DNA of 64,000 nt from Promethearchaeota archaeon (GTDB taxonomy: Archaea; Asgardarchaeota; Lokiarchaeia; Sigyniarchaeales; SOKP01), in NCBI GenBank assembly GCA_048937405.1, contig JBHLNF010000001.1:560685-624684 (forward strand), in the 5' to 3' direction. Below the pieces are notes generated by a model, which searched no databases, was not told where the DNA came from, and was given only the letters and a program-made list of their open reading frames with translations. Below, piece after piece: positions 16,241 through 46,170 of the stretch. Position 1 is the first letter of the stretch, and each line of letters starts with the position of its first letter. The position numbers and the translations under genes were made by a program.

Positions 16241-17056
16241 ATGCAAAAATCTCTCGAACAACGTGTAGAGATTATATTTCAAGACAATGTAAAAAATATT
16301 GAATTACTTAGTTATTTTAAGAGATCTACAAAAAAGACTCCAGTTTTTTTGGGGGATATTAATAGAAAATATACTGAAATTCGACCTCTATTAGATAGAG
16401 GATTAATAATTGATCAGAAAGCTGTAAAAACTTATATTTTTTATCTTGACAAATTTGAGAATTATTTTTATGAGCAATATCAAGAAAAGATAGATATTCT
16501 AAAAGTTGAGATTTGGAGTAGGAAAAGAAAGAAAAATGAGCTTATTGAACTCACAGAAAACATAACACCAGAAGAAGGATGTGATGATTATGAAGAAAAG
16601 CTACGTGCTTGCATTGATTTTGCCAAAAAATCGATTGAAAAATTAGATATTATGGAGATTGAAAAAGAAGATTATAATAATATAGTTGGAGAATTACAAG
16701 TAAAAAAGCAAAGTGATCCCCTTCATAATTTTCTGATGTATATTCGAAATGATAAGGAAATTATTTTTAATAAGAGAACTGAAGATGATGATGGACTCAT
16801 TCATAAAAAAATACTTAATTATTTAAATAAAAGTACTAATGGGAAAGGATGGCAATTTTTCACCGAACTAAAAAAAAAAGGTTTTTTTAAAGAATTTTCA
16901 CCTGCTAAAACCTATTTCATAACTGAGCTTGGTTTGATGGTTGATAGAAAGTTAAAAGAAATGATGTGGAAACAAGAAGAAAATTTTGAAAAAACTGAAA
17001 TGGAAAAAGCTCAAGAAGAAGAATTTAATAAACTAAAAGATTTATGGGGTTTATAA
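16241..17056 (+). CDS. Hypothetical protein
   Basis: 271-aa ORF with genome-typical composition; possible C-terminal winged helix (LKKKGFF...TYFITELG). Confidence 0.7.
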   Translation: MQKSLEQRVEIIFQDNVKNIELLSYFKRSTKKTPVFLGDINRKYTEIRPLLDRGLIIDQKAVKTYIFYLDKFENYFYEQYQEKIDILKVEIWSRKRKKNELIELTENITPEEGCDDYEEKLRACIDFAKKSIEKLDIMEIEKEDYNNIVGELQVKKQSDPLHNFLMYIRNDKEIIFNKRTEDDDGLIHKKILNYLNKSTNGKGWQFFTELKKKGFFKEFSPAKTYFITELGLMVDRKLKEMMWKQEENFEKTEMEKAQEEEFNKLKDLWGL

Positions 17057-17287
17057 GAATCCAGAGATAAGATCTCAGATAAGAAAGATTCTTTTTCAAG
17101 GTTTTTTGCTTTTTTTATGGTTTCTGAGAATGATTATAATTTCCCAATCAGAATAAATTTTAGTAATAACTATTTACTTATAAATAATGCGGACCCGAAT
17201 AATACGGAACCTTTTTATATGATAGTTAATAATCTATACTTGCATAATTATTTTTAAATCTATAATTTAAAATTTATGGAGTGTGAA

Positions 17288-17737
17288 ATGAAGAATATAA
17301 ATGAGAAGGATAAAATAATGTCTTGTTTAATGGAAGGGTTCAACTGATCTCAAGCGATATTTTCAACATATGCTATTAGATTTGGTATAAATCGTGAACT
17401 AGCATTAAAAATTTCTGGAGGTTTCGGAGGTGGCATGGCAGGTTTAGGTAATACTTGTGGGGCTATTACCGGTGCTTTTATGATCTTAGGACTTAAGTAT
17501 GGTAATGAAAAAATTGGAGGAGAAGAGCCAAATAAAAAGCTTTTTACTATGATTAGAGAATTTGTCTCGCGATTCGAATTAACTTATAATACCATTAAAT
17601 GTAGAGACTTAATTGGTTATGATATTAGCACACCTGAAGGAAGACAACTTGCTAAAGACAAGAATATTTTCAATACTATATGTCCAAAAGTAATTTTAAA
17701 TTCTGCTGCTATTCTTGAAGAGATGTTATCTAAATAA
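17288..17737 (+). CDS. C-GCAxxG-C-C family redox protein, predicted selenoprotein (Sec20), 149 aa
   Basis: ATG 17288 preceded by GGAGTG; MKNINEKDKIMSCLMEGFN-U-SQAIF...GGFGGGMAGLGNTCGAITGA...IKCRDL...IC. In-frame TGA at 17345-17347 occupies the family's first conserved Cys (G[FY]NC[AS]Q). The ORF track only shows the part after 17435. Confidence 0.88.
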
Positions 17738-17826
17738 TTTTTAAAAAAAGATATAAGAATAAAGAAAAACTGTAGTTTTAAAATTCAAAAAAAGGAATAT
17801 ATAACAATAGAGGCGTTATCATATAT

Positions 17827-18078
17827 ATGGATAATCGAACCACAGCATTGATAGGTATTGGAGCTACAGTCATTACGCAATGCCAGCCCTGATTTGAGAC
17901 TATGTTCAATTTTGCTCAAAAAAGCGGTGTTAATGAACAAGAAATATTAGACGCAATTAAATTAGCAAAAAAAGCAAGAAAACACGCAATTTCGAGGATG
18001 GATAAATTTATTTCAACATTTTTAGAGTCAAATGAAGGATCTGTGAAGAATTCCGGAAAAAGTGGATGTTGTAGTTAA
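17827..18078 (+). CDS. AhpD/carboxymuconolactone decarboxylase family protein, predicted selenoprotein (CxxU, Sec22), 83 aa
   Basis: MDNRTTALIGIGATVITQCQP-U-FETMFNFAQKSGVNEQEILDAIKLAKKARKHAISRMDKF...SGCCS*; TGA at 17890-17892 replaces the second Cys of CQPC and the frame continues 61 more codons in family-like sequence. Missing from the ORF track. Confidence 0.85.
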
Positions 18079-18110
18079 ACTTTGGAAATATTATGCCATT
18101 AAAAAAATAA

Positions 18111-18156
18111 ATTGAATGATATCCTTCAGTAAAAATGATAGTGAGGGATTGACAAT
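18111..18156 (+). ncRNA. SECIS element, eukaryote/Lokiarchaeota type (cis-regulatory RNA)
   Basis: AUUG A AUGA UAUCCUUCAGU AAAAA UGAU AGUGAGGGAUU GA CAAU: AUGA/GA kink-turn core, AUCCUUCA/UGAGGGAU helix, apical A-run 11 nt after AUGA, closing AUUG/CAAU helix; 32 nt after the stop of a UGA-containing gene. Confidence 0.85.
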
Positions 18157-18369
18157 AGGATAGCTTCCTTTAAGTATCTTTTAAATTTTTCAGTAAGTTA
18201 AATTGTAAGTATATAATTTTTTATGGTTTGTTTAAGGAATTATCTTGAATAAAGTATAAATTTATCTCGAATAATCAAGAGATAAGATTTCCGATCAGAA
18301 CAAACATTTTAAAGGAGAATCTAAAATATAAAAAAGAAAATAAGAATATTCATAAATTTGAATGTCTGA

Positions 18370-18831
18370 TTATACAATAAAAGAGATTGTGTCTACAACA
18401 TTTCCAAAAATCCCTGCTGTAAGAACCTTTTCAGGCTTAATAAATATTCTCGTAAATTTTTCCAAACCTCCGGCAGTCAGCTGTTCATAAATTTTTCTTG
18501 TCATCTCTCCGTGATAAGATAAGAATTCATCAAAGGTTTTTTGATTTAAAATTTCTAATTCTGCTTTACCCTTGATATATATAACTTTAGGCATTCCAGA
18601 CGAATCAGTTGCATCAAAAGTTAACCAAATATTGTTATTATTTTTGATATTGTTAATCTTTTTTCTTGTGTTTTTTGATAAGATAATACAATTTAATTGG
18701 GATGTTATTGAAAATTGAACCAGAGTTGTGTGAGGTTCACCATTACCACAAGTACTTAGGGAGCAATTTCTAATTTCTTTTAGGATATTTAGGATTTTAT
18801 CTTTTTGTTCTTCATTCAGTTTATTTACCAT
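18370..18831 (-). CDS. Pyridoxamine 5'-phosphate oxidase-like (split barrel) protein
   Basis: LSTCGNGEPH, RKKINNIKNNNNIWL, IKGKAE pattern. Confidence 0.8.
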   Translation of the reverse strand: MVNKLNEEQKDKILNILKEIRNCSLSTCGNGEPHTTLVQFSITSQLNCIILSKNTRKKINNIKNNNNIWLTFDATDSSGMPKVIYIKGKAELEILNQKTFDEFLSYHGEMTRKIYEQLTAGGLEKFTRIFIKPEKVLTAGIFGNVVDTISFIV

Positions 18832-18936
18832 ATTCTTTCACATTAAAGTTTTTTTGATTTTCAGGATATATATATTATTACATAAAACATCAGATATATT
18901 GGAATAATAATTACTTTAATTAATGTATTCCACAAT

Positions 18937-20613
18937 TTAAACCATTTTTATTTTTGGTTTGGTTATGATAAACTGACATTTTGGACAGATTTTATAATAG
19001 CGGTAACCTTGCATTGTGCTAAAAAAGTTCGAACCTAAAATACCTGCTGGTAAAATAAAAAGTGATACTCCCAGAAAAGCTAAAGCAATTGTACAAAAAC
19101 GACCTCCTGTAGTTATCGGGTATACATCGCCAAATCCAGTAGTTGTGAACGTGATAATTCCCATCCACAATGTAGTAGGAATATCTGAAAATTTAGTTGG
19201 TTGAGCATTTCTCTCTAAATAATAAATTAATGTAGAAGCAAATATAAGAAAAATACAACAGAGAGTAGTAGTAACTAAAAACTCTCGTTTTGTTTCCTTA
19301 AAAATTAATCCTGTAACCCTAAACACGTCAATAAAATGACCTATTTTAAAAATAACTAACATTCTTAAAATTTGAAGGTATAAAACTAAAATGCGAATAT
19401 GATTTAAAAAAAATATAAGATACAAAGCAATAAGAATAATAATGTCAATAATAGCTATTGGACTTAAGATATATTTTATTCTTCCTCTAATAGGATTCTT
19501 AAATTTCTCTTTTTTTGAAGCAACGACACACCAGACTCGTAATATATATTCAACGGAAAATACAATGATTGAAAATATTAACAGTGAATTTAATAAAGAT
19601 TTAAATTCTAAATATAATTCTGGATTGGTTCCAACCATTACTGCTAAAATATTTAGTGTGATAATACTTGCAAAGAAAATAAATACAATCTTTTGACCTA
19701 ATTTAGAGGGAAATCTAAAATGAATTAGCTTATATATTTTCTTTTTATAATTTCCCTTTGAAGAAATTTTTAAATCTTTTTTCTTGTCTTTCTTTTTTCT
19801 TAATTGCATTATAAACTCAGATTTTGAAATAACTTCTTGACAATTGGGACAAATTTCTGAGGAAGGTTTCCTCTCTTCAAGTTCCTCAAGGAATCCAGAT
19901 ACAATAACACTAGCGGGTAATAAGAATAATGTTATTCCAATAAAGGATATAATTCCTGATACAATTTTTCCAAATAGAGTTAAAGGTACAATATCCCCAT
20001 AACCGATTGTAAAAAGATTTATTGCCGTAAACCACATAGAGCTAAATAGATTAGTAATTTTATCAGGTTGGGCATCATGTTCAGCAATATATATGAATAT
20101 CGCTCCAAAAAACATCAAAATTAAAGAAAGCATTAAAGTGATTAATAATTCTTCTTTTTTGCGTTTTATTACCGCTAATATAATTTTAAAAGATCCAGAA
20201 TAACGAGTGAATTTAAGAAGTACAAATAAACGCAAAAATCGTGTAAAATCCATTACATCAATAACAAAAAAACCTATCAAATAGGTTACAAATGAGATAG
20301 CACTTAGAAAATCAATTACTCCTATAATACTTGTAAAATAATCCCATCGAGTTGAAATTGAATTTCCCACTCTAATTTTTTGATTATATGTCCAAAAACG
20401 GAGAAAATATTCCAAATTAAATGTAAAACCAATAATGCAAGATAATAAAATAAAGACTACATAGAATTGTTGTAGTAAATTTTTTTCGGTTTCTAATATT
20501 GCGATAGTCCCATATACAAAACTTGACATAATCAGCCAAATGGTTATAAATTTTGCTGAAATAGTCTTTACAATTGGAAAATTCAAACTTTTAAAGATTT
20601 TCTCTTTTATCAT
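18937..20613 (-). CDS. Potassium channel with two fused 6TM (Kv-like) repeats
   Basis: Two pore loops TIGYGD and TTGFGD, two EYxLRxW S2 motifs, S4-like RFLRLFVLLKFTR, each repeat followed by CPxC. Confidence 0.9.
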   Translation of the reverse strand: MIKEKIFKSLNFPIVKTISAKFITIWLIMSSFVYGTIAILETEKNLLQQFYVVFILLSCIIGFTFNLEYFLRFWTYNQKIRVGNSISTRWDYFTSIIGVIDFLSAISFVTYLIGFFVIDVMDFTRFLRLFVLLKFTRYSGSFKIILAVIKRKKEELLITLMLSLILMFFGAIFIYIAEHDAQPDKITNLFSSMWFTAINLFTIGYGDIVPLTLFGKIVSGIISFIGITLFLLPASVIVSGFLEELEERKPSSEICPNCQEVISKSEFIMQLRKKKDKKKDLKISSKGNYKKKIYKLIHFRFPSKLGQKIVFIFFASIITLNILAVMVGTNPELYLEFKSLLNSLLIFSIIVFSVEYILRVWCVVASKKEKFKNPIRGRIKYILSPIAIIDIIILIALYLIFFLNHIRILVLYLQILRMLVIFKIGHFIDVFRVTGLIFKETKREFLVTTTLCCIFLIFASTLIYYLERNAQPTKFSDIPTTLWMGIITFTTTGFGDVYPITTGGRFCTIALAFLGVSLFILPAGILGSNFFSTMQGYRYYKICPKCQFIITKPKIKMV

Positions 20614-43543: not shown

Positions 43544-43560
43544 AAGTGATCTTAACAATG

Positions 43561-46170
43561 ATGAAATTTGATAAATTTACTATAAAAGTACAAGAAGCCT
43601 TGTTGGCGGCAAGGTCTCTAGCTCAAGAAAGAGATCATCAAAAAATTGATCCAGTTCATTTATTAATTGCTTTTATAGATCAACAAGATGGAATTTCAAC
43701 ACCTTTATTGCAAAAATTAGGGGTAAGCATAAAAAATATATTGAGTGATCTCTACAGTGAAATGGGGAGGATTCCAAAGGTATCAGGTTCAGGAGCAATG
43801 GATGTGGTTTTATCTCGCGAATCAAGTACATTGTTTGATTTAGCTTGGAAAGAGGCTGATTTATTGAGAGATCAGTACTTAAGTACCGAACATTTATTAA
43901 TAGCTATGAGTAGTAATCATTCATTAACTGTATATTCAATTTTAAACAAAAATGGAATAACAAAAGATAGAATTTTACAAGCATTAAAAACTATTAGAGG
44001 GCATCAAACAATTACGGATCAAGATCCAGAGGGAAAATATCAAGTTGTTGAAAAATACAGCCGCAATTTAACAGATTTAGCAAGAATAGGTAAATTAGAT
44101 CCCGTAATAGGAAGGGATGATGAAATTAGAAGAGTTATGCATATTTTATCTCGCAGAACAAAGAATAATCCTGTATTAATTGGGGAGGCAGGAGTAGGAA
44201 AAACAGCAATAGTAGAAGGATTAGCACAGAGAATAGCAAATGGAGATGTTCCAGAATCATTAAAAGAAAAAGATATTTTAGCTATGGATTTAGCAGCAAT
44301 GGTTGCAGGAGCTAAATATAGAGGTGAATTTGAAGATCGGCTTAAAGCTTTTATAAAGGAAGTTGAAAAAGGTTCAGGAAAATATATACTATTTATTGAT
44401 GAGCTCCATACATTAGTTGGTGCTGGTGCAGCACAAGGTGCGATTGATGCTTCAAATATGTTAAAACCAGCATTAGCTCGAGGTGAATTAAGAGCAGTAG
44501 GGGCAACAACTTTAGACGAATATAGAAAGTATATCGAAAAAGATGCGGCATTAACACGACGGTTCCAAACAGTGTATGTTGATGAGCCTTCAGTGGAAGA
44601 TTCAATAGCTATTCTTAGAGGGTTAAAAGAAAAGTATGAAATTCATCATGGAGTAAGAATTACAGATTCTGCAATAATTGCAGCAGTTACATTATCGCAT
44701 AGATATATTTCAGATCGCTTCTTACCTGATAAAGCTATTGATTTAATGGATGAAGCAGCCTCAAGATTAAGAATTGAAATAGATTCAATGCCAACTGAAA
44801 TTGATGAAATTGAACGAAAAATCATTCAATTAGAGATTCAAAAGGAAGCTCTCAAAAAAGAGGATGATAAATCAAGTAAAGAACATATGAAGAAACTTGA
44901 TGAAGAACTGCATAATCTCAGGGAAGAGAATGATAACTTAAAACTACAGTGGAATAATGAAAAAAATGTAATCTTAAAGATTAATCAGATAAAAAGAAAT
45001 ATGGAAGAAACAAAAATTGAAGCTGAAAAAGCTGAAAAACGAGGAGATCTTGGAAAGGCTGCTGAATTAACATATGGAATGCTAAATGAATTGAAAAAAG
45101 AACTAGACCACTATAATACTGAACTATTAGAAATTCAAAAGAATAAAATTATGTTAAAACAAGAGGTAGATGATGAAGATATAGCCAAAATAATTTCTCA
45201 ATGGACTGGAATTCCCGTATCCAGAATGTTGGAAGGCGAAAGGGAGAAATTACTAAAGATGGAGCAAAGATTGAAAAAAAGAATTGTTGGACAAGACGAG
45301 GCACTAAACAAAATATCAAATGCAATTCGGAGAGCTAGGGCGGGAATACAAGATCCTAATAGACCTATTGGGACTTTTATATTTATGGGTCCCACTGGAG
45401 TTGGGAAAACGGAGACTGCAAAAGCGTTAGCAGAATTTCTTTTTGACGATGAAAATGCTATGGTAAGAATTGATATGTCCGAATTTATGGAAAAACACAG
45501 CATTGCGAGATTGATTGGTGCGCCTCCTGGTTATATAGGATATGATGAAGGAGGCTACTTAACAGAAGCAGTCAGAAGAAGACCATATTCTGTTATTTTA
45601 TTTGATGAGATCGAAAAAGCTCATCTTGAAGTATTTAATATATTATTGCAAATTTTTGATGATGGTAGATTAACAGATGGGCACGGACGTACAGTTGATT
45701 TTAAAAATACAATAATTATTATGACAAGTAATATTGGGAGTCAATACATTCTTGATTCTAGAAATGATGATCCTTTAAAAAATCGAGAAATGATTTTAAA
45801 GACACTTAAAAATTATTTTAGACCAGAATTTCTCAATAGAATTGATGAAATTATTATTTTCGATTTCTTAGATAAAAATCACTTAGAAGAAATTGTGGAT
45901 ATTCAAATTAAAAATTTAAATAAAATCTTATCAGTTCATAAAATCCAAATACTACTTACTCAAAAAGCAAAACAGTTCCTAAGTGAGAAAGGCTATGATC
46001 CTGATTATGGGGCAAGACCTTTAAAAAGGACAATTCAGAATTATATACAAAATCCATTATCATTAAAAATTTTAGAAGGGGATTTTATGGAAGATAGCAC
46101 TGTTAGAGTTGATATTGATAATAAAAAATCATTATCATTTGAAAGAATTGGAAAAATGGATGTGAATTAA
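43561..46170 (+). CDS. clpB: ATP-dependent disaggregase ClpB
   Basis: [21 protein letters not shown], full M-domain coiled coil, [15 protein letters not shown]; start could be 43546, 43558 or 43561. Confidence 0.98.

Follow-up and report, generated by a model that had tools for sequence, protein, structure and literature searches.

A candidate two-gene selenoprotein unit with a single lokiSECIS element in a Lokiarchaeia-type archaeon

The locus and its two UGA-containing genes

The stretch of DNA analysed here, referred to as the window, comprises 64,000 nucleotides (nt) of the genome of a Lokiarchaeia-type archaeon (Promethearchaeota archaeon, GenBank assembly GCA_048937405.1, contig JBHLNF010000001.1, positions 560,685 to 624,684). 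It holds two adjacent open reading frames (ORFs), ORF1 and ORF2, which are followed by a hairpin of the lokiSECIS type, the Asgard form of the selenocysteine insertion sequence (SECIS). The original prediction described two same-strand genes 89 nt apart with one in-frame TGA each, and this was borne out by reading the frames and by matches to the families PF09719 and PF02627. The window lies on contig C7 of the source genome (4.47 Mb, 29% G+C), and the features below are given in window positions.

17288 to 17737, forward strand: ORF1, a putative redox protein of the C_GCAxxG_C_C family, 149 amino acids (aa) from ATG 17288, with TAA as its stop codon
17345 to 17347, forward strand: UGA codon 1 (GFN-U-SQ), 771 nt 5' of the SECIS AUGA (18116)
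17738 to 17826, forward strand: spacer between ORF1 and ORF2, 89 nt, A/T-rich
17827 to 18078, forward strand: ORF2, a short AhpD/CMD-like protein of 83 aa with the motif C-Q-P-U, a tail ...GCCS at its C terminus and TAA as its stop codon
17890 to 17892, forward strand: UGA codon 2 (CQP-U), 226 nt 5' of the SECIS AUGA (18116)
18108 to 18157, forward strand: predicted lokiSECIS (Asgard type I eSECIS-like element), 36.2 bits with the leave-one-out covariance model R1
18157 to 18169, forward strand: accessory hairpin AGGAUAGCUUCCU, directly 3' of the SECIS core

Both genes are shortened by standard annotation. ORF1 is represented by a predicted 100-aa product that starts at M54 (17435), a truncation that had been foreseen. 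ORF2 is not missed altogether, as had been supposed, and appears as a 58-aa product (P0003). The TGA codons themselves are not assembly errors, as both are present in contigs of four further sequencing runs from two studies, where they had been expected to read TGT or TGC if the assembly were at fault. The ORF2 UGA is covered by an exact-match contig from the second study.

With TGA read as a sense codon, ORF1 extends from 17276 or 17288 to 17737, and its sole in-frame TGA stands in the context ...MEGFN-U-SQAIF.... A second in-frame ATG lies at 17276, while homologue alignments begin at the methionine of 17288 and GGAGTG (17278-17283) ends 4 nt before that codon, which makes 17288 the likelier start. 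The protein matches PF09719 (C_GCAxxG_C_C; E 4e-31, 108 bits, cut-off 27) and TIGR01909 (75.4 bits, cut-off 47.4), a model that NCBI names 'C-GCAxxG-C-C family (seleno)protein'. Numbered from ATG 17276, the four conserved cysteine (Cys) positions are U24, which replaces the first Cys, C61 in NTCGAITG, C108 and C135.

Homologues of ORF1 occur in 141 of the 160 genomes of the class that were searched, the best at 56% identity, and Cys occupies the column of the TGA in every one of the 29 closest Lokiarchaeia-class homologues (GF[NSR]-C-[SA]Q). The codons on either side of the TGA, 23 before and 29 after, are conserved as well as the rest of the protein. The TGA is exactly the codon expected for a selenocysteine (Sec) form of the family. 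Bacterial C-GCAxxG-C-C selenoproteins are known (TIGR01909/PF09719 forms 1 and 2; PMC13188914), and ORF1 resembles them in belonging to the same family above cut-offs and in having a predicted Sec for a conserved Cys. It differs from them in its archaeal host, and in having neither a SECIS of its own nor a bacterial SECIS within the coding sequence. ORF1 is probably a selenoprotein, less securely so than ORF2.

The sole in-frame TGA of ORF2 lies in the context ...TQCQP-U-FETMF.... Against PF02627 (CMD) the protein scores 25.3 bits, just above the cut-off of 23, with the redox motif C19-Q-P-U22, and several AhpD-type selenoprotein models are also matched weakly. As had been stated for both families, Sec forms are known in bacteria, in this case AhpD-like or CMD-like selenoproteins with a CxxU motif (NF041047 GSU3128 family, TIGR01926 and PF02627 forms; PMC13188914). 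ORF2 shares with them the AhpD/CMD fold signature, the replacement of the second Cys of CxxC by a predicted Sec, and a small size (about 84 aa). However, it is not a member of the NF041047 equivalog (21.3 bits against a cut-off of 110), its predicted signal is a lokiSECIS in the 3' untranslated region (UTR) rather than a bacterial SECIS within the coding sequence, and it carries a C-terminal CGCS/CCS tail and has an archaeal host.

Six short relatives of ORF2 (80-92 aa) were found among the class genomes. Five of these have CxxC (CQQC, CQNC, CQPC, CEKC and CTSC), and the ORF2 TGA aligns with the second Cys. Both TGAs stand at conserved redox Cys columns, as first proposed. A word-indexed protein search with ORF2 returned its own 58-aa shortened product only; a profile search of 1.8 billion proteins yielded 1879 relatives (E <= 0.001), many with a length of 80-90 aa, CxxC and a C-terminal CGCS. 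Across this short AhpD-like family (17827-18078, P0005-P0024), the conserved Cys-rich tail (CGCS, CCS or CGCG) follows a variable linker and might form another redox or metal site.

The lokiSECIS element and the capacity to read UGA as selenocysteine

The hairpin at 18116-18152 starts 37 nt past the ORF2 stop and consists of AUGA, UAUCCUUCA, the loop GUAAAAAUGAUAG, UGAGGGAUU and GA. The AUGA occupies 18116-18119, helix II pairs 18120-18128 with 18142-18150, the 13-nt loop lies at 18129-18141 and the GA at 18151-18152; a possible helix I of 4 bp joins 18111-18114 to 18153-18156. Published lokiSECIS elements consist of AUGA, a 9-bp helix, an 11-nt loop with some five A at its start and (A)G at its end, and GA (Mariotti et al., PMC4989117). 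The candidate resembles them in its AUGA, its helix of nine positions, its A-rich loop with AAAAA inside and AG at the end, its GA, its location tens of nt past a stop codon and the second small hairpin at 18157-18169, whose like also follows the other lokiSECIS elements of the source genome and those of relatives. It differs in its loop, which has an extra GU ahead of the A run and so 13 nt instead of the very constant 11, and in its first helix position, a U.U beside the core that leaves eight of the nine positions paired.

The covariance model R1 was built from eight other lokiSECIS elements of the source genome, with the candidate excluded. In the 64-kb window its top match was 18108-18157 (E 1.9e-6); a scan with a model of Asgard SECIS elements had been named as a check in the original prediction. 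Across the whole genome the candidate was among 11 matches of at least 36 bits (E 1.3e-4), and eight of the other ten lie just 3' of ORFs with an in-frame TGA (four HdrA-VhuD pairs, one HdrA, one PrxL and two unassigned ORFs), while the remaining two are the pair on C16 described below. A strict lokiSECIS pattern had 12 matches in the genome compared with 0, 1 and 4 in three shuffled genomes. These were mostly right behind TGA-carrying ORFs (three HdrA-VhuD pairs, one HdrA, one Prx-like and two unassigned), the fourth HdrA-VhuD pair being added by the whole-genome R1 scan. Over ten elements, the helix is 93% paired, whereas shuffles reach 57% and slid partners about 50%, and compensatory changes are present at all nine helix pairs.

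A scan of 16500-19000 with Rfam (E <= 10) found no SECIS family, the eukaryotic SECIS model (SECIS_1) included, and only miRNA and snoRNA noise. The element is therefore assigned to the Asgard class, and not to the eukaryotic family as modelled. In this respect the earlier description of a eukaryote-type SECIS stood as to the presence of a real element and was overstated as to its type. As far as sequence can tell, the hairpin at 18108-18157 is a genuine lokiSECIS-type element.

Other matches to the model were rejected. The second R1 match in the window, at 45756-45803 on the forward strand, is a false positive inside a ClpB-like ORF (43546-46170) without TGA, and its 25.2 bits mark the false-positive level of R1. 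A genome match at C7:368207 (28.8 bits) lies inside a coding region, has no AUGA and is likewise a false positive.

In other metagenome runs, contig depth spikes over the apical part of the SECIS (window 18125-18170). Several contigs match these positions alone, and their differing flanks still hold AUGA and the start of the helix. The sequence of 18125-18170 is common to related SECIS elements at other loci or in other organisms.

Two further lokiSECIS elements of the source genome follow ORFs without a Pfam family. An ORF of about 158 codons at L012:2507-2980 (+) has two adjacent in-frame TGAs (...AVHAD-U-U-ADVMK...) and is followed 20 nt on by an element of 50 bits (L012:3001-3035, equal to C7:547321-547355, about 13 kb before the window). 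That element and its 3' hairpin resemble those of the ORF1-ORF2 unit. The second, the best-scoring lokiSECIS of the genome (56.4 bits, L015:3001-3035, equal to C19:95112-95146) follows a small single-pass membrane ORF at L015:2743-2985 (+) with the sequence ...DTGG-U-GCALIG.... At C16:26173-26220 and C16:26634-26681 (-), two elements of 44.8 and 52.1 bits, about 460 nt apart, flank a small two-helix membrane ORF with ...IFIKS-U-GMTFE...; the neighbouring elements are not shared there.

The ORF2 family offers a direct comparison between genes with and without the UGA. The sixth of the short relatives, in another genus (G051), reads CKP-TGA at the same column and has a lokiSECIS of 50.4 bits 30 nt past its stop. 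The protein P0006, a family member from the profile search (L104:1084-1341, on an independent metagenome contig, SRR6208352), reads CKPW, the contig codon for its W is TGA, and a lokiSECIS of 38.7 bits lies 16 nt past its stop. In five Cys-form loci of the family, scanned with the lokiSECIS model with filters off, no score exceeded 14 bits. A SECIS thus accompanies three of three Sec forms and none of five Cys forms. Because two relatives pair the TGA with a lokiSECIS of their own, the Sec reading of ORF2 is independently supported, and Sec decoding of this gene is very probable.

Gene order around the two other Sec forms is conserved: at L096:3730-4814 (G051:C18) and at L104:308-1399, a DUF166 gene precedes a short AhpD-like gene with CKP-U and a lokiSECIS. 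DUF166 is itself among the selenoprotein families known from bacteria, but has no TGA at these loci. In the public protein collection, P0006 stands with W at the UGA codon, evidently called under a code in which TGA is W.

The machinery for Sec insertion, which the original prediction had named as a check, was found in the source genome in all its parts. SepSecS (377 bits), a PSTK-like protein (E 8e-45) and an EFSec-like GTPase (231.8 bits, well over the next translation factor) are encoded, as is SelD, whose frame holds one in-frame TGA (SelD with Sec). The tRNA-Sec gene is at C7:230424-230576, about 225 nt 5' of SepSecS and outside the window, and carries two introns (D arm, 34 nt; T loop, about 30 nt). 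It was located by blastn with the tRNA-Sec sequences of relatives; Aragorn and the Rfam tRNA-Sec model missed it in this genome, and scans for GC islands and anticodon stems found none. By predicted gene content, the full archaeal Sec pathway is present. The PSTK/SepSecS route, the lokiSECIS elements and tRNAs rich in introns agree with a Lokiarchaeia-type Asgard archaeon. Within the genus, tRNA-Sec was detected in 17 of 26 genomes (59-64 bits). The other nine had no match above the cut-off, and these misses are possibly also due to introns.

Taken against this background, the view that neither UGA is recoded, with both being assembly errors or both genes dead and the hairpin a chance match, is close to refuted. 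Nothing specific speaks for it, other than that hairpins are common in a region as AT-rich as this. Against it stand the recurrence of both TGAs in the four further runs, the 36 bits scored with a model built without the hairpin, the distribution of SECIS elements between Sec and Cys forms of the ORF2 family, and the complete Sec machinery of the genome.

One element, probably shared by two genes

The distances proposed from the AUGA hairpin to the two UGAs, about 225 and 770 nt, were measured as 226 and 771 nt. The accompanying proposal that the genes have no second SECIS was upheld between 17000 and 18100, where neither the R1 scan nor a loose kink-turn (K-turn) hairpin scan found another lokiSECIS-like element. 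In the spacer, the best R1 score was 10.2 bits (E 9.7, loop positions only) and no K-turn hairpin was present. Matches of the loose scan, apart from the SECIS itself, were rejected as noise.

A single lokiSECIS serving two genes has a precedent. In the HdrA-VhuD pair of Lokiarchaeota (hdrA-frhD/mvhD), one lokiSECIS has been described as serving both cistrons of an mRNA presumed to be polycistronic (Mariotti et al. 2016, PMC4989117), and a survey of more than 400 Asgard genomes bore this arrangement out (Huang et al. 2024, PMC11227280). The union of operon organisation with eukaryote-style recoding by one SECIS had initially been put forward as a new combination, and on that point it was preceded by these two reports. 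The published reach of one element extends to UGAs up to about 2 kb upstream in the preceding cistron (PMC4989117). The source genome itself has four such pairs, in which the first HdrA UGA is about 2.4 kb from the SECIS, and distances of 771 and 226 nt fall within this range.

The ORF1-ORF2 locus resembles HdrA-VhuD in having two same-strand genes of predicted selenoproteins with a single type I lokiSECIS behind the second. In both, the UGA of the first gene is separated from the SECIS by a stop codon, and the first gene ends in UAA or UAG (UAA in ORF1) and not in UGA. The differences are that ORF1 and ORF2 belong to other families (C_GCAxxG_C_C and AhpD-like), that their spacer is longer, and that HdrA and VhuD always co-occur, whereas the ORF1-ORF2 pair is conserved in no other genome examined.

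If ORF1 is decoded, the shared element is the simplest route, because no other SECIS was found and the distances lie within the HdrA-VhuD range. The locus would then be a two-gene selenoprotein unit of a Sec-using archaeon of the Lokiarchaeia type. The ORF2 UGA would be read as Sec (CxxU) under the direction of the lokiSECIS past its stop, as part of a module of gene plus SECIS that other Lokiarchaeia have as well. ORF1, on the same strand just upstream, would have changed its first catalytic Cys codon to UGA, and its co-transcription with ORF2 would place the 3' SECIS on the same mRNA, as in HdrA-VhuD. Sec decoding of ORF1 through the shared SECIS is, on present sequence evidence, moderately probable; actual Sec insertion, co-transcription and the action of the SECIS on ORF1 are what we infer from this arrangement.

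Several observations weigh against this reading. The HdrA-VhuD pairs of the source genome have spacers of roughly 6-21 nt, whereas the one here measures 89 nt and contains a T5 run right behind the ORF1 stop (17738-17742), TATA-like stretches and GAGG at 17810-17813. Runs of the T5 type can terminate archaeal transcription. The one found here can be taken as a possible end of the ORF1 transcript, and the TATA-like stretches could drive a separate ORF2 transcript. An ORF2 homologue stands beside an ORF1 homologue at none of the 29 ORF1-homologue loci, and no other locus examined has the pair. Both other Sec-form ORF2 genes follow the TGA-less DUF166 gene and not an ORF1 homologue. The element itself has the lowest score among those accepted, in addition to its 13-nt rather than 11-nt loop.

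Upstream of ORF1 on the same strand is a gene for a 271-aa protein, to which no known family was assigned, and downstream on the opposite strand are a PNPOx-like gene and an ion-channel gene. A search by way of the 271-aa gene found the ORF1-ORF2 unit absent at the syntenic site of the closest relatives, a further point against a shared element. As these relatives hold different genes downstream, there is no orthologous locus for comparison.

The same concerns bear on whether ORF1 is translated past its UGA at all. It is conceivable, though unlikely, that ORF2 is the only selenoprotein and that ORF1 was recently inactivated or truncated at its N terminus when a Cys codon became a UGA stop, with any translation restarting at M54 to give the 100-aa product. 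A single nucleotide change from TGY to TGA suffices for this, and a Sec codon gained in that way would look the same as a null mutation. The relatives of ORF1 are of the Cys form only, while those of ORF2 include both Cys and Sec forms, which is what the search for Cys/Sec homologue pairs yielded. No Sec form of ORF1 was found in any other of the 160 class genomes, and the source genome carries several Cys paralogues of ORF1 able to cover a loss. Inactivation would also fit a pair that is not conserved and a spacer whose T5 run may split the transcripts. Five class homologues that were flagged with an in-frame TGA have none at the Cys column and were rejected as Sec forms. Scans of metagenomes and genome collections with ORF1 found no close relative, the best being at 47% identity and all being Cys forms.

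What speaks against inactivation is that the stop hits exactly the codon that would be Sec in a Sec form of the family, and that a working Sec module, as predicted, adjoins on the same strand. No further lesion is present, and the N-terminal 53 codons are conserved like the rest of the protein. Moreover, three haplotypes, drawn from two studies, all keep the ORF1 TGA and show neither indels nor extra stops. One haplotype has ten differences over 17235-17603, which include four synonymous and four non-synonymous codon changes and no ORF indels. Although these counts are too small for significance (P about 0.1, estimated), the pattern speaks against an error of assembly and, mildly, against a pseudogene in decay.

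Another reading gives ORF1 a transcript of its own, on which the UGA would be decoded as Sec by way of a signal other than type I, such as a structure in the 5' UTR or coding sequence or a divergent element of the SelD type. SelD of Lokiarchaeota relies on another kind of element, type II-like, which escapes the type I model, and one archaeal 5'-UTR SECIS is documented (PMC4989117). The 3' UTR of SelD in the source genome has no match to the strict type I pattern, and weak AUGA...AA/GA hairpins are present at 17130-17166 and 17619-17658. However, both of these hairpins are AU-only or without an A-rich loop, and R1 gave neither an E value under 10. The loose scan gives about 18 such matches in 1.2 kb, which is the noise level, and between 17620 and 18115 there is no start of an [AG]UGA...GA/AA hairpin with 6 bp or more. 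A separate signal for ORF1 is a decidedly improbable explanation.

Returning to the shared element, a broader proposal is that a lokiSECIS can recode the UGA of any gene on its transcript, even where that gene is unrelated and lies upstream at a distance of 89 nt, with a stop codon in between ('SECIS piggy-backing'). A new selenoprotein could then arise by one Cys-to-UGA mutation, and ORF1 would be a freshly born, species-specific example. The case for and against this proposal is evenly balanced.

Implications for archaeal selenoproteins

A survey of more than 400 Asgard genomes in 2024 recorded seven Asgard selenoprotein families (PMC11227280), and a review in 2026 listed eleven archaeal families (PMC13188914). 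AhpD/CMD-like and C_GCAxxG_C_C proteins are absent from both lists, and ORF1 and ORF2 would therefore be two additions to the archaeal families. That a single lokiSECIS can serve two cistrons has been published before, which makes the find less of a surprise. What would be new here, if the sequence-based predictions hold, are two families so far unlisted for archaea and a second, looser kind of shared-SECIS pair.

Sec forms of both families are rare, and gene callers shorten them or wrongly put W at the UGA, as in P0006. Asgard selenoproteins can thus hide in databases through the calling of TGA as W. Within the ORF2 family, the presence of a SECIS with TGA and its absence with Cys constitute a clean natural experiment. 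ORF1, in turn, is a directly testable case for the reach of a eukaryote-like 3' SECIS in a prokaryotic operon, and it bears on the origin of new selenoproteins. The locus hints at one way in which Sec could be gained, namely by a single mutation in a gene that lies upstream of a selenoprotein module already in place.

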